64,000 nucleotides of DNA from an archaeon (GTDB lineage: Archaea; Asgardarchaeota; Thorarchaeia; Thorarchaeales; Thorarchaeaceae): NCBI GenBank assembly GCA_024276825.1, contig JAJRWI010000053.1, positions 1 to 64,000 of the forward strand, read 5' to 3'. Made by a program: the position numbers and the translations under genes. This document shows positions 32,997 to 41,592 of this stretch, in pieces. Every line of letters begins with the position of its first letter. Positions within the stretch are counted from its first letter, which is position 1. The notes under the pieces were generated by a model. The model saw nothing but the letters and a program-made list of their open reading frames with translations, was not told where the DNA came from and ran no database searches.

Positions 32997-34562
32997 TCAC
33001 TCTGACTTTTCCATCATCTTCTTGTGCATTCTCCAAGTCAATGTAAGGGTTTTTGGATGTGCTGCTCTGTACTCATCAAGCAGTCGGATGGCTGCGGAGT
33101 GTGGGGCATTCTTGACGATTTCTGGGTTTGAGTATGCCTCTTTAGAGATCTTCTGAAGCGCGTTTATAAAGTGGTCAAGGTCTTCCTTGGTTTCACTCTC
33201 AGTCGGTTCTATCATCAATGCCTCATCAACGATGAGCGGGAAGTATATTGTGGGGGCATGAATTCCAAAGTCTAGTAAACGCTTTGCCACATTCATGGCA
33301 GAAACCCCTGTTTCCTTTTCAAGTTCTTTTGCTGATATCACACACTCATGCATCCGTGGGGCATTCTTCGAATATGGAAGAGTAAACCCACGAATCTTAC
33401 AAACATTCTGAGCCACATAGTTCGCGTTTAGCACCGCAATCTCAGAGGCTCGCTTTAGGCCTCTTCCCCCTAAGGCATAGATGTATGCATAAGCTCTCAC
33501 GAGAACCCCAAAGTTCCCATAGAAGCCATGTATCTTCCCTATTGACTTGGGCAGGTCATAGTCCAAGTCAAAAGTACCATCATCATTTCTTATTATTCGC
33601 GGTATGGGGAGGAAATCTTTCAGTTTTTCTTTGACACCAACTGGACCTGCACCAGGTCCACCTCCACCATGAGGGGTTGAGAAGGTCTTATGCAAGTTGA
33701 GGTGGACAACATCAAAGCCCATGTCACCAGGTCGAGTCACACCCATAATGGCATTGAAATTGGCACCATCATAGTACAGCAGACCACCAGCATCATGAAC
33801 AATACCTGCAATTTCCTCTATGTGTTTTTCAAACACACCAATTGTATTTGGATTGGTCAACATGAGACCTGCGGTATGAGGGCCTGCAGCTTCCTTCAGT
33901 GCATCAACATCAACAAGGCCATCGGGATTTGAGGGGACAACTACTACCTTGTAGCCTGCCATTGCAGCTGAAGCGGGATTTGTGCCATGTGCAGAGTCTG
34001 GTATTAACATCTCATTACGTTTTTCGCCCTCACCTGAAATATGTTGATGAAATGCTCGAATCATCAATACTCCTGTGAATTCTCCCTGTGCACCAGCTGA
34101 GGGCTGTAAGGTCACTGCGTCCATTCCTGTGATCTCTGAGAGCCATTTTTCCAGCTCCCACATCAGTTCAAGAGCACCCTGAGTTTGACGTACATCTTGA
34201 TAGGGATGAATCCAAGAGAATCCGGGTAGTGACGCCATCATTTCATTGATTGCCGGGTTGTACTTCATAGTACAGCTGCCCAGAGGATATGTTCCAGTAG
34301 ACACTGAATAGTTCATCTGGGACAGCCGTGTATAATGCCTAGTCACTTGTGACTCTGTGAGAGAGGGAATCTCAGGAGGGGATTTCCTGATCATTTTGGC
34401 AGGGAGGATCTTATCAATTGGACCAACAGTTGCAATAATTGAGTCCTCAACCTCGGGCACTTGATGCCCAATGACGCCCTCATTATGCATTTCAAATATG
34501 AGAGGTTCTGGCCAGCGCGCTTGCCTGAAGTCAGGCCTGTGATAGCCTTCAAACTCCTTCAT
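32997..34562 (-). CDS. gcvPB: Glycine dehydrogenase subunit 2
   Basis: PLGSCTMKYNP, QP.AGAQGE, SAHGTNPASA, NLHKTF.TPHGGGGPG. Confidence 0.96.
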   Translation of the reverse strand: MKEFEGYHRPDFRQARWPEPLIFEMHNEGVIGHQVPEVEDSIIATVGPIDKILPAKMIRKSPPEIPSLTESQVTRHYTRLSQMNYSVSTGTYPLGSCTMKYNPAINEMMASLPGFSWIHPYQDVRQTQGALELMWELEKWLSEITGMDAVTLQPSAGAQGEFTGVLMIRAFHQHISGEGEKRNEMLIPDSAHGTNPASAAMAGYKVVVVPSNPDGLVDVDALKEAAGPHTAGLMLTNPNTIGVFEKHIEEIAGIVHDAGGLLYYDGANFNAIMGVTRPGDMGFDVVHLNLHKTFSTPHGGGGPGAGPVGVKEKLKDFLPIPRIIRNDDGTFDLDYDLPKSIGKIHGFYGNFGVLVRAYAYIYALGGRGLKRASEIAVLNANYVAQNVCKIRGFTLPYSKNAPRMHECVISAKELEKETGVSAMNVAKRLLDFGIHAPTIYFPLIVDEALMIEPTESETKEDLDHFINALQKISKEAYSNPEIVKNAPHSAAIRLLDEYRAAHPKTLTLTWRMHKKMMEKSE

Positions 34563-35962
34563 TAGTCATTGCCCTCCTTGATTATAGCTGAAACAGTGTT
34601 AACCATTTTTTCTATTGCCTTCACAGAGTGAATCTCAGTGACGCCGAATAATAAGGACTCACCAAGACCTGGAAACTCGCTCTTGAGCGAATGACCACCA
34701 TGAATTCCATGCTTCAGTAATTGTTCATTAATCGAGTCTGCAGAGATATTGGTTTCAAACTGAACGGCAAAGTCTTTCCAGATTGTTTTGCCTATTGCAG
34801 GGGCTCTTACATTATCGATCTCATTCAATAGTTTCGCAGCATGGTTTGATTTGTAAGCAATGACTTCAGCAATCTTCTTTATGCCATTTGATCCCATTAA
34901 TGCAACATAAATTGCCGCGGTCACTGCAATAAGCGCCTGATTTGAACAGATATTGCTAGTTGCTTTCTCCCTTCGTATGTGTTGTTCTCGTGGACTGAGT
35001 GTTAATACAAACCCGCGTTCATACGGTTCATTCTGAGTGCGAGTAAGACCAACCAGTCTACCCGGCAATTGGCGGATCAACTTCATGTCATTCCTGCATC
35101 CAAAGACACCAAGAAGGGGACCACCATAACTCACCGGAGTTCCAAGAGGCTGACCTTCACCTATGACTATGTCTGCACCATAATCGCCAGGTGGCCTTAA
35201 AATGCCTAGAGAGAGAATGTCTACACCTGCAACTAGTAGTGCATCAGCGTCATGAACAATCTGATTTATCTCATCCACTTGTGTTTCAATGAATCCCAAG
35301 TAACTAGGGTTTTCTATATAAACGCCTGCAACCGAAGAGTCAATCTTTGACTCGAGGTCACTGATAGAAATTAGACCCGTATCGAAATCGAAATTGACTT
35401 GCTCTATCTGTATTCCGGCGGGTTCACAATAGGTTGTTAGTGTCATTAAGTTTGCAGGACTGATTGTCCTTGGAACCAAGAACTTCTTACGTTTCCTCTT
35501 GACTCTGACTGTCATAAGTGCGGCTTCACCAAGGGCAGTAGCTCTGTCATACATACTGCTGTTTACTACTTCGATTTCAAGTAGTTCTGCCAGTAGGCTC
35601 TGATATTCAAAAAGGGTCTGTAGCATTCCTTGTGAGATTTCTGCCTGATAACTGGTGTAGGCAGTGACAAATTCTGATCTTGAAGAAAGAGCTTGAACCG
35701 CAGCAGGAATGTAATGAAGACCCAATCCAGCACCAAGAAAGATCTTACCAGAGTCGGCAGGAGTGTTCTTACTGGCCAGTTCACGCAGACGCAGGAACAC
35801 TTCATGTTCGCTGTGAGACTCGGGAAGATTCAATTCATGCTTAATCTTGAATTTCTCAGGTATATCACTGAATAGACTGTCAAGCGAGCTCTTATTGATT
35901 GATTTGAGCATCTCATATTCTAATATGTCAGTCATTGGTATGTATGGATGTTTAAAATCCAT
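34562..35962 (-). CDS. gcvPA: Glycine dehydrogenase subunit 1
   Basis: TAYT.YQ.EISQG.LQ..FEYQS, REQHIRREKATSNICSNQ. Confidence 0.96.
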   Translation of the reverse strand: MDFKHPYIPMTDILEYEMLKSINKSSLDSLFSDIPEKFKIKHELNLPESHSEHEVFLRLRELASKNTPADSGKIFLGAGLGLHYIPAAVQALSSRSEFVTAYTSYQAEISQGMLQTLFEYQSLLAELLEIEVVNSSMYDRATALGEAALMTVRVKRKRKKFLVPRTISPANLMTLTTYCEPAGIQIEQVNFDFDTGLISISDLESKIDSSVAGVYIENPSYLGFIETQVDEINQIVHDADALLVAGVDILSLGILRPPGDYGADIVIGEGQPLGTPVSYGGPLLGVFGCRNDMKLIRQLPGRLVGLTRTQNEPYERGFVLTLSPREQHIRREKATSNICSNQALIAVTAAIYVALMGSNGIKKIAEVIAYKSNHAAKLLNEIDNVRAPAIGKTIWKDFAVQFETNISADSINEQLLKHGIHGGHSLKSEFPGLGESLLFGVTEIHSVKAIEKMVNTVSAIIKEGND

Positions 35963-36094
35963 TAGTATCACCATATGTCAAGGGGATTTGTATGTAATGG
36001 CGGCACCAAGACTGCATTAAGCCTTTTTGCATGCACCATGAGGAATCATTTTTAAATTTGCAATTCAAGGAAGAACTGCTTGAGGACTGTGAAT

Positions 36095-36505: not shown

Positions 36506-37366
36506 TCACTTTTCCTCATTACTCATCATACTGAATGGGAAGTCTTCTTTGGATATTATATCAAGATGTAGTCGTCGGATATGTGAGAGTTGGAGGTAAT
36601 CACCGTTCACATAGACATCAACCATTGTGTAGTTTCGAAGGCCTGAAGTGGAGAGTTTCTTCATTAGTACTGCTTCAACCTGGAACACACCTGCGGGATT
36701 GTCCATAGAAACCGTGATGCGCAGAGCTTTTTCATTACCACGACTCAGAGTCACATTGTTGATTGCCATGGCACTTATCGAGTGAATATCCACTTTCCCC
36801 TGACTGAAAGGTACTGTAGTCCTGCCTTTAGTCATATCGCAGCCATCGCCAATTTTGACACAACCTGCTTCCAAGGTCAGGCATTGAGTATCATCATCAT
36901 GGGCATATATCCCATGCAAAATTGATGAGAGAATATCAGTTGCGACACCCATATCAGAATACAATTGGGTGATCTTTTTCTCGAGTATTGGGCGGGCAAG
37001 CTGCACTGATGATTGGGAGTGTTCTTTACGATGAATTACCATCCCGATATCATGAAGATATGTGGCTGCCAGAATTGCCATTCGGGTATCATCCTTATCG
37101 CCAATAGCCTCGGCCTCGATATTTGACTTAAATGTAATGTCTAGTATCTCGTATGCTTTCAATGCATTCCATGCTGCAACCATTGCATGAGTGGGACCAT
37201 GATCGGTATAGCCCAGTCGTGAAACCGCCATTCTATTTGCACTGCGAAGATAGGACTGCACGATTGGGGAGTTGTAAAGATAATCAAACATCTCATATGC
37301 TTTAGTACCGGGCTCGAGGATGTCATATAGACTAATGCGATTCCTGTCTAGTTGTTCTTGCACCAT
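36506..37366 (-). CDS. HD-domain phosphohydrolase
   Basis: RLGY.DHG..H, LHDIG..HR..H, H, D..DM..GR. Confidence 0.88.
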   Translation of the reverse strand: MVQEQLDRNRISLYDILEPGTKAYEMFDYLYNSPIVQSYLRSANRMAVSRLGYTDHGPTHAMVAAWNALKAYEILDITFKSNIEAEAIGDKDDTRMAILAATYLHDIGMVIHRKEHSQSSVQLARPILEKKITQLYSDMGVATDILSSILHGIYAHDDDTQCLTLEAGCVKIGDGCDMTKGRTTVPFSQGKVDIHSISAMAINNVTLSRGNEKALRITVSMDNPAGVFQVEAVLMKKLSTSGLRNYTMVDVYVNGDYLQLSHIRRLHLDIISKEDFPFSMMSNEEK

Positions 37367-37439
37367 TATAAAAGCCCCCAAAGGGACTGGAATGTGTTGC
37401 AAATACTAAGATAAGATTTACTAAGTAGAAGCTTTGGGA

Positions 37440-40379
37440 CTATATATCGCCAGCTTCTTCCTGAAGTGATAGTAGAATCTTATCAATCTCAGTTGTTGCA
37501 CGCTTGATTGTCTTAAGAAAGTCCTCTCGGGTGCGTTCGAATGCCACACGACTAATCTTCTGCTTTTTCTTCCTGATAAGCAGTTGGCGAAGACCAGCTT
37601 TGGCACCTTCGATGCGCTCCTCCTGAAGCTCAAGATGGGCTATCATATCGCGGTACCGTGATCCATAGCGCATCAATTCGTCCTTAAGAGAGGGTAGCTT
37701 TGATTCAATCTCTTGAAGTTGCCTCTTGATGTCTTTTTCACGAATCATATACTCACGTTTTTTGATCTTGCCCCGTCGGCGAGAGGTGTCAAGTTTCTCG
37801 AGGTCCATGTTCAATGCTACCTTCTTAGAGTAGAGAGTTGCAAACTCTTTCAACAGACTTGGAGGGGCAGACACTCTCTTTGCAGGAGTTGAAGCATCAC
37901 TAACTGGAGTTGTTATTGTAGCTTCTTCAATCTCGACCTTTCGAATTGAAACGTAAGCAGCGGCTATCAGACCGATAATCACTGCAAACGCCATGGGTCG
38001 TGCAACAATTCCAGATGCGAGTGAGTATGTCAGTAATATTTCAGCAGGGTTCATCGAAGTAGTGTTATAGACAATGTATTGGAAAGTGTTGTCAAACACA
38101 CCATAGAGTAAACGATAGTTGTCAGATATCTGATTCACACTGACAGAGATTGGTACGACGATGTCAATGGTGTGTTTCTGAACGAGAAGGTTGTCCATAG
38201 TACTTTGTGGAAACTTAATTGTATTGCCAGTCTGATAATGGTCTATCTGTAAGTCGAATTCAATAAAGAATGTGTATTTGTAATGAGGGTATAGTCCATC
38301 ATCACCAAAACGGTCCGACTTTAGATTTATGATGAGATTTGCGGTTTCATTGAAGAGTCGTTCCGATGATGGCATTGAACGTGCGAGTATTCCAACCTGA
38401 TCGTAAACAACAATGTTAGTTGTGTACGCGGGGATGTCATACTTCATTGTGAGTTCTTTTGCTGGGCCTATATTGTTCAGTGAAACTTCTTCATAATAGT
38501 GAATCCAGCCCCAAGGGTCAATAGTAATTCTTGTGAGCTTGTTTGCAACAATCAAGGGCGTGAAAGACTCCATTGTTGTGGAGAACTCTTCCACTGTCAT
38601 TGGTGCAACATTTTCTTTCTGTACTTCTGGAAGGGATCCTGTCATCCTGTCGCCGCTTCTGAATTCCATTCCAAAACTGAATGAGTGGATAGTGTATGGA
38701 AGAACTGGATACTTCAGAAAACGGATCTCGTACCCCTCGTTTTCAAAATCAATCAGTTGATGTAATGAGTGCATGTAGAAATGGGTAGTGAATGAGTATC
38801 TTGCTTGAAATCCTACAGGCTCTGCGAAATAAACCCGCCAATGCATGAAGTCATTGTAGTCTGGAAGTCTTTCAATTTGCAGTTCAACATCATCGTCATC
38901 AATCGCCGTAAGCGATAAGAAATACGATGACCATTTCATTGGCAGAAATACATCAATTGCATTAATTGGAACAGACCCATTATTACGGATTGTGAACATA
39001 TCACGGACATCAGTAGAGTGATAGGTCTGCGTATGTATCTCGCGCTTAATCGTCAGCTTCATCCCATTTAATGGTTGGAACGGGTAATCTATGGTCACAT
39101 TCACAAAAGTGACAGAGGTGCGATTGGAGGGGTCTGTTGCATTGAACCAAATTGTATGAGGGCCGGTTTCATAACTTGAAAGGTCTAAGCTCTCTACCCA
39201 CAGATCACTCTTGAAATCATAAAATATTTCTGTCCAGTCCTCATCATCGAACTTGTACCATACCCTTCTCACTAATGTGTTATCAGTAGCATTGAGTTTC
39301 AATGTGGTGACAATGCCAATGGTTGAGTCTTGTTCAGGACTTTCAACAATTAGTGTTGGGGGTGCATTGGGGACAAGTTGCATCATAAGGGGAGTCGACC
39401 AGGGAGTGTGATGAACAGGCAGTTCATTGAATGCATCATTTTGGCCGAATAGTAGAATCATTGGATACTGGAGAGTTGTCGAGTTTGTGAGAGCAATGTC
39501 TTGAAGGTCTGTGCTGTTCAGTCTGATAATATATTCAATTTGGGTTGTAAGACCGTCATCAGTTGCATTTGCCTCCACCACGCGAGTCTGATTGGTATCG
39601 TCAATGTAAGTGAATGTACCTGTTCCAAAGCCTTCGCGGTATTCAATTCTGCTTGCATCTGCAGGGTTGTCATGATTGCCGTTAATTCGGAGTAGCGTAA
39701 TCTCATATTCAAGATCATAGCCATAGAAGGGATGGTCCTTGGAGTTGTAAGCATATTCAGCGGGGATTATAAAATGACGGACTTCTCCTACTCGCATTCC
39801 AATTATTGCCTCTTTGAACTTCTCGAGAAGCTTCTCGTCATTGAGAGGGGTGGTTGATGTGATGTCAGGGATGTTTCCCTCTTCAATAACTGTTCCATTT
39901 CTGAGAGAGAGAACATAGTGCACTGTGACTGCCTCTTCTCCCGTGACCCTTTCGATTGTGGTGTGTGGAGTGCCAGGAGCAAATCCATAGATGATATCAC
40001 TCTGGTTTAAACCCGAGTCAGTAAAAACACCTGTCGAGTTCTTCCAGCTGAGAGCAATCCATCCTGACGTGGGTGCTGACAGGCCCACGTACAACATTGT
40101 TGAATTATGTTCCATATACACGGTGATACCAGTGATTGGGTCTGTATAATTATAGGCATATTCCCAAGGGTCGATTATACCATCAGCAAAGCCATAATGC
40201 TTGTCTACGTATGGAATGGATAGATTCAAGGATGACTCAGACAAAGACTGTATAGGCTTTGCAGCATCAGGTGTGGTTTGTGCATTAAACGTTGTTTCGG
40301 GGGTTGTCACCATCACACCACTAACCAAGAGTAGTGTCAGTAATGTGAGGGTTGTCATTCGTCTCTGTAACAGACTCAA
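37440..40379 (-). CDS. Ribophorin-I-like protein with N-terminal DOMON-like, FKBP and Ig-like domains
   Basis: Signal peptide; FKBP signature VTVHY..EAIIGMRVGE.R..IPAEYAY..L.YEI.LL.I; ribophorin-like RITIDPWG.I...E...L.N.G and VYDQVG; one TM; coiled-coil tail; many N-X-S/T sequons. Confidence 0.75.
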   Translation of the reverse strand: MSLLQRRMTTLTLLTLLLVSGVMVTTPETTFNAQTTPDAAKPIQSLSESSLNLSIPYVDKHYGFADGIIDPWEYAYNYTDPITGITVYMEHNSTMLYVGLSAPTSGWIALSWKNSTGVFTDSGLNQSDIIYGFAPGTPHTTIERVTGEEAVTVHYVLSLRNGTVIEEGNIPDITSTTPLNDEKLLEKFKEAIIGMRVGEVRHFIIPAEYAYNSKDHPFYGYDLEYEITLLRINGNHDNPADASRIEYREGFGTGTFTYIDDTNQTRVVEANATDDGLTTQIEYIIRLNSTDLQDIALTNSTTLQYPMILLFGQNDAFNELPVHHTPWSTPLMMQLVPNAPPTLIVESPEQDSTIGIVTTLKLNATDNTLVRRVWYKFDDEDWTEIFYDFKSDLWVESLDLSSYETGPHTIWFNATDPSNRTSVTFVNVTIDYPFQPLNGMKLTIKREIHTQTYHSTDVRDMFTIRNNGSVPINAIDVFLPMKWSSYFLSLTAIDDDDVELQIERLPDYNDFMHWRVYFAEPVGFQARYSFTTHFYMHSLHQLIDFENEGYEIRFLKYPVLPYTIHSFSFGMEFRSGDRMTGSLPEVQKENVAPMTVEEFSTTMESFTPLIVANKLTRITIDPWGWIHYYEEVSLNNIGPAKELTMKYDIPAYTTNIVVYDQVGILARSMPSSERLFNETANLIINLKSDRFGDDGLYPHYKYTFFIEFDLQIDHYQTGNTIKFPQSTMDNLLVQKHTIDIVVPISVSVNQISDNYRLLYGVFDNTFQYIVYNTTSMNPAEILLTYSLASGIVARPMAFAVIIGLIAAAYVSIRKVEIEEATITTPVSDASTPAKRVSAPPSLLKEFATLYSKKVALNMDLEKLDTSRRRGKIKKREYMIREKDIKRQLQEIESKLPSLKDELMRYGSRYRDMIAHLELQEERIEGAKAGLRQLLIRKKKQKISRVAFERTREDFLKTIKRATTEIDKILLSLQEEAGDI

Positions 40380-40572
40380 TATGAATCACCAGTGCTCTAC
40401 GGATTTCGCGTCAACTATGGAACTGTGTGCTCCGCGAACGTTCCGCTTCAACATCTAGACTGTTAAAATAGTTTCTGTCGTACAACGCACGCACCAACAT
40501 GTAGAAAACGAGATTTGTCCATCGAAAAGTGTAAAATGGAGTGAAAATGCATACAGGTCAGGTGAGTATACA

Positions 40573-41592
40573 TTGATCCAGATCATTCTTGCCCTCATAA
40601 TCTCTTTCATTGCGGTGTTTTCTATATTGCCCGCAGCAATCAGAATGCTTAAGGCCAGAGGAATTTGTGGGGTCGATGTCCATAAGCCCAACAAGCCCTC
40701 AATTCCAAAGGGAGGAGGGTTTGTCCTACTGTTCGCAATAGTCACAACTCTTCTGGTAATAATTGGAGCGACCACATTCATTGAACATGGACAGGTGAAT
40801 ATTGGGCTGCTTGCATCTCTGGTTTCAATCTTGATGGCAGGAATGATTGGGCTGCTTGATGACAATCTTGACTTTAGTAATCGAATAAAGATCATAATGC
40901 CCATGCTCGCATCAATTCCAATGATGGCACTGAATGTGGGAACCACAACAATGTCAATACCATTAATTGGGACTTTTGACTTGGGAATCATTTATCCCTT
41001 GATAGTCATCCCATTGATGATGACATTCATCATTGACTCTACAAACATGTACGGGGGAATGAACGGACTAGAAGCGGGTTTGGTGTGCATAAACTCATCT
41101 GCGATCATCATCTATCTGGTGGCTAAGCCCCTTCTGAATATAGACACAATTGCTCAAAATGAGATGGATGCTGCGATAGTGGCTGCTGCCCTACTTGGTG
41201 CTTCACTTGCATTTTTGTGGTTCAACAAGTATCCAGCCAAGGTCTTGCCAGGTGATGTAGGAAGACTACCGATGGGGGCCACCATAGCAGCATCGCTCAT
41301 TCTTGGAAACATGGACCGCATGGCAATTATCATGTACATACCCTTCTTGATTAACTTCATCATGTATTTGCTATACAGAATTTATGTCAAGAAGAAAGGC
41401 ATCGAGTATGTCAAATTCGCCACTCCGAGGGATGATGGTACATTGGAAGTTGTCGGACCATTCACCATGTATTGGCTATTCCCATATCTCTCAAAGAAGA
41501 TTACCGAGAAAAAGAACGTGATTATTCTGATACTGATTCAGGCGATTATTGCCTATACTGCGGTTGCATATCTTCTACTGTTCATGAAGTGA
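40573..41592 (+). CDS. UDP-GlcNAc:dolichyl-phosphate GlcNAc-1-P transferase (AglH/Alg7/DPAGT1-like)
   Basis: G.DVHK...IP..GG, GLLDD, N..GGMNGLEAG, FNKYPAKV.PGD.G. Confidence 0.88.
   Translation: MIQIILALIISFIAVFSILPAAIRMLKARGICGVDVHKPNKPSIPKGGGFVLLFAIVTTLLVIIGATTFIEHGQVNIGLLASLVSILMAGMIGLLDDNLDFSNRIKIIMPMLASIPMMALNVGTTTMSIPLIGTFDLGIIYPLIVIPLMMTFIIDSTNMYGGMNGLEAGLVCINSSAIIIYLVAKPLLNIDTIAQNEMDAAIVAAALLGASLAFLWFNKYPAKVLPGDVGRLPMGATIAASLILGNMDRMAIIMYIPFLINFIMYLLYRIYVKKKGIEYVKFATPRDDGTLEVVGPFTMYWLFPYLSKKITEKKNVIILILIQAIIAYTAVAYLLLFMK

Follow-up and report, generated by a model that had tools for sequence, protein, structure and literature searches.

The window analysed here is a 64,000-nucleotide (nt) stretch of thorarchaeal DNA (family Thorarchaeaceae; positions 1 to 64,000 of contig JAJRWI010000053.1, assembly GCA_024276825.1), and the gene under study is the open reading frame (ORF) at 37440-40379 on the minus strand, which starts with TTG and encodes a protein of 979 amino acids (aa). 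As judged from homology and predicted structure, the C-terminal ~540 residues of this protein (aa ~431-979) are the canonical OST1, or ribophorin I, of the genome, and the N-terminal ~430 aa are an add-on in which a predicted DOMON-fold sandwich is split by an FKBP domain and followed by an Ig domain. The gene lies head to head with the ORF at 40573-41592 (+), which encodes a polyprenyl-phosphate HexNAc-1-P transferase of the Alg7/AglH/DPAGT1 type (GT4 family, 339 aa). The best explanation overall, to which we give a probability of roughly 0.55, is that the protein is the OST1 of a Sec-oligosaccharyltransferase translocon that carries an outward foldase/holdase or peptide-binding adaptor module. 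The source genome has 2.94 Mb and is 98.3% complete. More than 120 clusters of full-length homologues were found, the nearest of which are labelled Thorarchaeota or Promethearchaeota, and the public annotations of the family read "FKBP-type peptidyl-prolyl cis-trans isomerase", "Ig-like domain-containing protein" or hypothetical.

The two parts of the protein

When the 979-aa protein itself was scanned with Pfam and NCBIfam, no Ribophorin_I match was obtained at E<=1. The family profile (PF04597) was matched by 15 of 48 full-length orthologues, with a best E of 9.6e-10 and up to 38.6 bits. In an exhaustive HMMER search over 1.84 billion representatives, aa ~442-975 aligned end to end with ~200 proteins of 550-620 aa (E 1e-41 to 1e-13), and those of them that were scanned (E to the query 1e-41 to 1e-31), which originate from Odinarchaeia, Helarchaeota and other Asgard lineages, passed PF04597 with 51-62 bits against a cut-off of 25. 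An AlphaFold2 (AF2) model of aa 430-835, built from a 79-sequence alignment (predicted local distance difference test, pLDDT, 91.0), has the two-beta-sandwich RPN1/Ost1 fold followed by one transmembrane (TM) helix. The top eight Foldseek matches of this model in the PDB were all RPN1/Ost1 (E 1.6e-21 to 2.5e-16, TMq 0.62-0.72), among them 8b6l_O (E 1.6e-21, TMq 0.70), 6s7o_E (7.8e-20) and 6ezn_A (8e-17), and the next family, the integrins, followed at E 1.6e-7 with a TM score of 0.25. An earlier reading of this DNA, made from its letters alone (the sequence-only reading), had claimed a ribophorin-I-like region here, which is borne out by the profile matches of the orthologues, the end-to-end alignment and the structural matches. 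Human RPN1 and yeast Ost1 (8B6L O, 6S7O E, 6EZN A) share the two lumenal beta-sandwiches and the TM helix with the thorarchaeal protein (TMq 0.68-0.72), but they are only 13-15% identical to it and carry neither an FKBP nor a DOMON part at the N-terminus.

The extracellular OST1 part, with its two predicted beta-sandwich domains, was delimited by HMMER, the AF2 model and Foldseek to aa ~431-788 (38016-39089, -). It is followed by the single TM helix that the sequence-only reading had listed, at aa ~789-812 (37944-38015, -), where a hydrophobic stretch coincides with a helix at residues 360-385 of the modelled segment, and by the cytoplasmic tail, aa 813-979 (37443-37943, -). This tail had been described as a coiled coil, a description that has to be given up: it matches the cytoplasmic domain of OST1 from MK-D1 (8whn_A, E 1.1e-10 over 136 aa; profile E 4.5e-9), and by homology it is the OST1 four-helix bundle. 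It is also the best-conserved part of the protein, with 73% mean pairwise identity. The MK-D1 domain (8WHN), whose four helices form a bundle of the same topology as in human RPN1, pulls down ribosomes, and ribosome binding has been reported for both the MK-D1 and the human OST1 cytoplasmic domains (PMC11417166). The OST1 of this organism ('Ca. Prometheoarchaeum syntrophicum', WP_147663064.1; Carilo et al., J Biol Chem 2024, PMC11417166) shares with the thorarchaeal protein the plan of an ectodomain, one TM helix and a helical tail, the bundle being homologous in the two. Canonical Asgard OST1s, of ~560-640 aa, differ from the thorarchaeal protein in that they are devoid of the ~430-aa DOMON(FKBP)-Ig add-on.

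No second OST1 gene was found in the source genome. The single STT3/AglB gene (a 931-aa frame) is found on another contig (G000:C36:41342-46363), at a distance of ~3.5 kb from an OST3/6 homologue, so that the genes for the subunits of the oligosaccharyltransferase (OST) are split between two loci. The search for OST48/Wbp1 in the genome gave only a sub-threshold OST48_N match (21 bits, cut-off 36), which is located at G000:C40:3824-3964 (-) inside a 673-aa frame and is either a distant Wbp1/OST48-like protein or due to chance. The eukaryotic OST has 8-9 subunits, most of which were not found in the thorarchaeal genome.

The N-terminal part begins with a signal peptide, as had been proposed, since the translation of aa ~1-33 (40281-40379, -) has a basic n-region with RR and a hydrophobic core; residues before aa ~50 are disordered in the AF2 model. 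The add-on module faces outward and has many conserved sites for N-glycosylation. The ectodomain holds 17 sequons, against 7.3 expected, of which 14 fall in aa 50-430, and none is present in the tail; there is no Cys anywhere in the protein. FKBP_C (PF00254) matched aa 146-230 with E 1.9e-11 (44.6 bits, cut-off 21.1), and it was matched in 47 of 48 orthologues. The Pfam DOMON profile (PF03351) did not match the 979-aa protein, and it gave weak matches in 9 of 48 orthologues (best E 6e-5; e.g., 19.5 bits, cut-off 32.7). The DOMON part was recognised at the level of structure. An AF2 model of aa 40-345, built from 53 sequences (pLDDT 91.7, predicted TM score 0.87), was compared with 48,161 PDB representatives, and the segments that flank the FKBP domain aligned to DOMON-type folds across the insert, from model residue 14 to 298. 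The best DOMON-fold match was the gamma subunit of ethylbenzene dehydrogenase (2ivf_C, Z 15.9), followed by that of nitrite oxidoreductase (7b04_C, Z 15.3), the DOMON domain of dopamine beta-hydroxylase (4zel_B, Z 13.5), and the cytochrome domain of cellobiose dehydrogenase and CBM9 (1d7c_A and 1i82_A, both Z 12.2). The insert (model residues 104-196) matched FKBPs with Z 10-12.5, with SlyD at Z 12.5 (3cgm_A, root-mean-square deviation (rmsd) 1.9) and FKBP2/FKBP13 at Z 11.5 (2pbc_A, rmsd 2.0; Foldseek TMt 0.72-0.78). From the FKBP_C match, the DOMON folds that span the insert and the FKBP fold of the insert itself, we conclude that the nesting of an FKBP domain in a DOMON fold, already suspected in the sequence-only reading, is real as far as confident prediction shows.

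The DOMON fold thus occupies, in the model, aa ~50-142 (39954-40232, -; AF2 model and VIA-align) and aa ~236-340 (39360-39674, -; structural matches reach model residues 298-302), with the FKBP domain in one of its loops at aa ~143-235 (39675-39953, -; Pfam FKBP_C, Foldseek and the SlyD match). It is a short-type FKBP, lacking a flap insert. An Ig-like domain, which had also been noticed before, follows at aa ~341-430 (39090-39359, -); the Big_7 match on the 979-aa protein is weak (E 0.017), and the profile matches 34 of 48 orthologues (best E 6e-11). The nearest ESM Atlas clusters to the model were plain DOMON or plain FKBP proteins, none of them with both domains; a bacterial DOMON cluster, for example, aligned with a TM score of 0.50-0.52 (163 residues at rmsd 1.9). 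Compared with members of the DOMON superfamily (2IVF_C, 4ZEL, 1D7C, 1I82), the thorarchaeal part has the same beta-sandwich (Z 12.2-15.9, rmsd 2.7-3.5 over 140-174 residues), but it is interrupted by a whole FKBP domain, its DOMON signal at the sequence level is weak and it contains no conserved haem-ligand Met.

Since the best fold matches include haem-binding DOMON proteins (2ivf_C, 7b04_C, 1d7c_A and also 6jt6_A), the DOMON part could be a haem-b cytochrome of the cellobiose dehydrogenase or ethylbenzene dehydrogenase-gamma type with an extracellular redox role, and conserved His columns (H61, H91 and H324) would be in line with this. However, no Met is conserved in either DOMON half among the 53 sequences. 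At column 310 the residue is Met in 45 of 53, but Leu in the 979-aa protein, and column 124, the Leu of the GLNQSD (GL-N-x-S-D) motif, is Leu in 45, Ile in seven and Phe in one of the 53 relatives, and never Met. In addition, the protein has no Cys to offer and no redox genes are present in the conserved neighbourhood. A haem-binding cytochrome is thus highly improbable, and for want of a conserved axial Met this assignment was rejected. It had been suggested that Leu takes the heme-Met position of the DOMON domain. The Leu at column 124 stands; its equivalence to the haem Met could not be demonstrated by residue-level alignment, a profile of the DOMON N-terminal half having found only chance-level matches among PDB sequences (BMP6 and a phosphate-binding protein, E ~1). 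The N125 and S127 of the same motif form a nearly invariant N-x-S sequon.

In order to describe the pocket of the FKBP domain, FKBP12 numbering, in which Y26, F36, D37, F46, W59, Y82 and F99 are the canonical pocket and catalytic positions, was transferred through an HMMER alignment to FKBP13, and residues were counted over 48 sequences. The equivalents of Y26, Y82 and I91 are Tyr in 48/48; that of W59 is Tyr in 47/48 and Phe in the 979-aa protein; that of F99 is Tyr in 46/48 and that of I56 is Leu in 47/48. The F36 equivalent is Ile, Leu or Val, the D37 equivalent Gln or Glu, and the F46 equivalent Ser. Relative to the ER-lumenal FKBP2/FKBP13 (2PBC, 4NNR) and to short-type FKBPs, which are the best full-domain structural match, the equivalents of Y26, Y82 and F99 are retained (F99 as Tyr), but D37 is changed to Q/E, F46 to S and W59 to Y/F. 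These residues indicate that a conserved aromatic, proline-type pocket has been kept, though not the textbook catalytic set, and that binding of peptide segments by the pocket is likely. The only other FKBP_C domain of the genome lies at G000:C7:34111-34374 (+), in a 260-aa frame that matches only the first 78 profile positions. At a guess, this is a cytosolic FKBP of the long type, which has a flap insert, and in that case no FKBP of the genome other than the one fused to OST1 would be exported.

Distribution of the fusion and pairing with the transferase gene

A sample of 300 further genomes from the phylum as a whole was surveyed for the add-on (aa 40-345). It was found in full length in 73 of 76 other genomes of the window's family (16 genera) and also in the one genome of a sister family (41% identity), always in frames of ~985-1034 aa, which makes 74/77 for the order, in 17 genera. 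In the other 28 families only partial, weak matches to DOMON or FKBP alone were obtained. With a profile of the OST1 ectodomain, in turn, the gene was detected in 279 of 301 genomes (89 of the 90 high-quality ones), and the OST1 frames outside the order have 560-640 aa. Since the add-on is confined to one order and OST1 is nearly universal in Asgard archaea, the fusion is a derived trait of that order. The sequence-only reading had looked to conservation of the fusion across Asgard genomes, and this holds within the order and not elsewhere in the phylum: the fusion is neither Asgard-wide nor ancestral, but lineage-specific, and it is not ancestral to eukaryotes.

Conservation within the family is higher in the add-on than in the ectodomain of OST1, the mean pairwise identity being 63% for the DOMON N-terminal half and 57% for the FKBP domain versus 42-47% for the ectodomain. 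A stand-alone paralogue of the DOMON(FKBP)-Ig module, of 586-598 aa and 41-46% identity, is present in a few genomes of the same family (L012:5001-6761; G299:C125:6285-7175; G179:C23:20710-21591). It has an unrelated gene context, being neither fused to OST1 nor placed beside the GT4 gene. The 586-aa member is 41% identical over 411 aa and then continues into further Ig-like and Ser/Thr-rich sequence, and with this Ser/Thr-rich linker the paralogue looks like a surface protein. The possibility that this 586-aa protein (P0131) is the front half of a split OST1 gene was considered and rejected, since the ORF that follows is unrelated. The extra Ig-like part and the Ser/Thr-rich linker of the surface-like paralogue, the Ig spacer in the add-on itself and the concentration of 14 of the 17 sequons in aa 50-430 could all be accounted for if the add-on were an envelope spacer or anchor, i.e., a glycosylated DOMON-FKBP-Ig stalk that fixes the translocon to the S-layer or cell envelope, or keeps it at a distance from them, without acting on any substrate. 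However, a mere spacer would not need FKBP pocket residues that are invariant over 17 genera, nor would it be expected to be better conserved than the OST1 ectodomain, and we regard this explanation as quite unlikely.

The neighbouring transferase matches PF00953 with E 3.1e-29 (102.5 bits, cut-off 27), and its best relative in the PDB is human DPAGT1 (5lev_A, E 3.8e-21), as compared with 2.1e-12 for MraY (4j72_A). No other PF00953 gene was found in the genome (98.3% complete), and by its family the enzyme should start the synthesis of the lipid-linked glycan. The divergent region of about 190 bp that the sequence-only reading had OST1 share with an AglH/Alg7-type transferase measures 193 bp (40380-40572), and when hit coordinates were compared the GT4 gene was found adjacent and divergent to OST1 in 72 of 75 genomes, the two genes being on different contigs in the other three. 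The whole TopoVI-GT4-OST1-HD block is syntenic in the family, and its core survives in a 36%-identical relative with different downstream genes. Outside the order, a GT4 gene lies within ~5 kb of OST1 in 7 of 10 genomes, taken from 10 other families, and once directly head to head; in two of the remaining three the genes are on different contigs, and in the third, a small single-contig genome, they are far apart. The intervening genes, in the three genomes examined, encode hexapeptide acetyltransferases, a GlmU-like nucleotidyltransferase, a sugar oxidoreductase (GFO/IDH/MocA), an aminotransferase, DUF354 and GT1. The presence of GT4 near OST1 in other Asgard families implies that the linkage between OST1 and glycan synthesis is older and looser than the fusion. 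This broad linkage lends genomic support to a function of archaeal OST1 in N-glycosylation, and the head-to-head pairing with the single transferase would tie the OST1 protein of the window to that process. In three of the loci outside the order (L013, L014 and L016, of genomes G109, G011 and G012), a canonical OST1 was seen 3-5 kb from a longer GT4 of 454-458 aa, one of them with a TrmB-family regulator.

The pairing with a glycan-initiating enzyme, together with the location of OST1 within sugar-nucleotide/glycosyltransferase clusters in other Asgard families, can also be read in favour of an N-glycan lectin. Here the DOMON part, whose fold resembles CBM9 (1i82_A, as above) and a putative carbohydrate-binding protein of Bacteroides (4jpq_B, Z 10.9), would bind glycans, and with the FKBP domain it would form an OST-coupled quality-control device for glycoproteins, a prokaryotic counterpart of the calnexin-type cycle. 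However, non-lectin DOMON proteins match more strongly (Z 13.5-15.9), the CBM9-type likeness being one of fold only, and the pairing is equally well explained by OST1's own role. Furthermore, no components of a glucosidase/glucosyltransferase-type cycle were seen near the gene, although no search was aimed at them. A lectin is thus unlikely, and the earlier phrase "analogue of ER glycoprotein quality control", with reference to the endoplasmic reticulum (ER), is speculation.

A proposed role at the exit of the secretion channel

Judged from homology and predicted structure, the 979-aa protein is the OST1 subunit of a Sec-oligosaccharyltransferase translocon in the thorarchaeal cell membrane. 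If the data from MK-D1 and human OST1 apply, its conserved basic tail would attach the protein, together with AglB/STT3, to ribosomes engaged in translation at the Sec channel, and a ribosome-docked tail would place the glycosylation machinery at the exit of the secretion channel. The anatomy of the protein would then bring the FKBP pocket to the point where unfolded chains leave the channel, outside the cell and without ATP. There, the FKBP domain may act, as an ATP-independent foldase/holdase or as an adaptor that binds peptides, on nascent proteins that are secreted and glycosylated; the DOMON sandwich would mainly be its rigid scaffold and the Ig domain a spacer. In a more specific variant, which we put forward tentatively and consider possible rather than probable, the FKBP domain would be a built-in foldase of the translocon that acts co-translocationally beside AglB on chains emerging from SecYEG, so that secretion, N-glycosylation and proline-limited folding would be coupled within a single polypeptide docked on the ribosome.

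Prolyl isomerase/holdase domains that work without ATP on freshly Sec-translocated proteins are known from bacteria, in FkpA, SurA and PrsA. These are separate proteins, soluble or lipid-anchored, unlike an FKBP domain that is part of a glycosylation subunit and of a predicted ribosome-docking protein. The closest functional analogue is human FKBP11 (9N9J/9YGY; Nature 2025, PMC12804085), a single-pass FKBP that is placed next to OST-A in the ribosome-bound translocon and whose basic C-terminal helix makes contact with the ribosome. Common to both, on the thorarchaeal side by inference, would be an FKBP on the lumenal or outer side next to OST and a basic cytosolic element that contacts the ribosome; the two FKBP domains match each other with E 2e-3 in sequence and Z 10.6 in fold. 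However, FKBP11 is a separate protein that is recruited during synthesis, whereas the thorarchaeal FKBP, nested in a DOMON fold, belongs covalently to the OST1 chain itself. The resemblance is one of functional analogy rather than of common descent of the arrangement, the fusion being confined to one archaeal order. A built-in foldase would, if true, be an independent archaeal invention of what mammals get by recruiting FKBP11 to the OST-A translocon.

Several points weigh against the proposal of a foldase/holdase or adaptor module in a translocon OST1. Two residues that are important in FKBP12-type catalysis are replaced family-wide (D37 by Q/E and F46 by S). In the single-sequence comparison with the PDB, the FKBP part is matched most strongly by the third FK domain of wheat FKBP73, a repeat that is not known to be catalytic. 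The existence of the stand-alone paralogue away from OST1 means that the module is not intrinsically a part of OST, and the family-wide synteny of the neighbourhood makes the pairing with the transferase gene weaker as evidence of function. Finally, the pocket of human FKBP11 is buried by a partner, CCDC134, and not by a substrate, and the authors argue against an isomerase action (PMC12804085); from this precedent, the fused FKBP may likewise be only an adaptor.

Some of these points would also suit a non-catalytic docking module, in which the FKBP pocket is permanently occupied by a proline-containing loop from a second protein of the translocon or envelope, and the add-on recruits or positions that partner instead of folding clients. 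The replacement of the D37 and F46 equivalents in the whole family while the aromatic pocket is invariant would then be expected, the FKBP11 pocket, which CCDC134 buries on the OST-A side of the human translocon, would be the precedent, and the same module occurs in a stand-alone surface protein. Nevertheless, no candidate partner was identified, the conserved downstream neighbour, an HD-domain protein, has no export signal, and many active FKBPs tolerate changes at the D37 and F46 positions. We consider such a docking module doubtful, and continue to favour a module that acts as a foldase/holdase or peptide-binding adaptor at the translocon.

Ribophorin I is a protein shared by Asgard archaea and eukaryotes that frames ideas on the origin of the ER translocon, and its own function is poorly defined even in eukaryotes. 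An FKBP domain attached to OST1 is a natural experiment on the role of OST1 at the channel exit, its presence implying that unfolded nascent chains come within its reach. It also offers a compact single-polypeptide system for the study of co-translocational folding help, parallel to FKBP11 at the OST-A translocon, and should be of interest to the fields of OST, translocon-associated folding and Asgard cell biology. No paper on a fusion of FKBP or DOMON to ribophorin I was found in the literature, subscription-only papers not being covered.

Intergenic region, start site and neighbouring genes

The divergent intergenic region (40380-40572) was aligned in 21 genomes from 17 genera, and it contains two conserved promoter-like elements. 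The B recognition element (BRE)/TATA-like element that faces OST1 (GACAGAAA CTATTTTAA; 40463-40479, -) lies in the conserved block CCGAAAC-CTATTTTAA, and the one that faces the GT4 gene (CATCGAAAAGTGTAAAAT; 40520-40537, +), 35 nt before its start, corresponds to the conserved block GTTTTACACTTTTCGGG on the other strand. From the archaeal consensus both would be promoters. Co-regulation of OST1 and the transferase, as had been supposed, is plausible but unproven, and each gene has a conserved BRE/TATA-like element of its own. A 178-aa ORF at 40455-40991 (-), on the strand opposite to the transferase gene, extends across the conserved promoter region and had no family match; it is probably no gene and was treated as spurious.

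A Shine-Dalgarno sequence, GGTGAT, was found 5 nt before the TTG codon of OST1 (40385-40390, -), in columns that are invariant or nearly invariant. GGTGA, followed by 5-7 nt and TTG, is invariant in the 21 genomes, and hence the start of OST1 was placed at the TTG at 40379. The public gene call, of 972 aa, takes codon 8, an ATG, as the start, but in many orthologues this codon is not ATG (window 40358-40390, -). The 5' untranslated region (UTR) of the OST1 mRNA has a conserved start and contains, at the predicted 5' end of the transcript, a candidate hairpin at 40404-40439 (-), in which the conserved arm GTTCGCGG can pair with a variable arm 25-35 nt downstream (CGCGAA in the window). Its mean z in single-sequence folds was -2.1. 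A covariance-model alignment, itself fitted to the model, had 94% of its cells paired, versus ~40% when slid, and six of eight pairs were changed on both sides, in a compensatory manner across genera. RNAalifold on MAFFT alignments of the intergenic region and the 5' UTR gave no consensus structure, or a trivial one.

The genes that surround the pair have archaeal housekeeping functions (topoisomerase VI A and B, RIO kinase, a KH protein and the glycine-cleavage P subunits). An HD-domain protein of ~290 aa (36506-37402, -) is encoded 3' of OST1 in every thorarchaeal locus examined, including that of the 36%-identical relative (L007:5897-6766); no connection with glycosylation is obvious, and the protein has no export signal. 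The glycine-cleavage P-protein genes (32997-35974, -) lie ~1.5 kb downstream of OST1. In an Odinarchaeia genome and in one further lineage (L009:1432-2838; L010:1777-4718), the canonical OST1 is placed directly head to head with glycine-cleavage genes, so that this OST1-GcvP linkage spans classes. In the locus of the divergent relative, a beta-propeller protein with weak BBS2/BBS7-like Pfam matches (L007:6763-7740) and an actin-family gene (L007:8650-9795) were observed near OST1.

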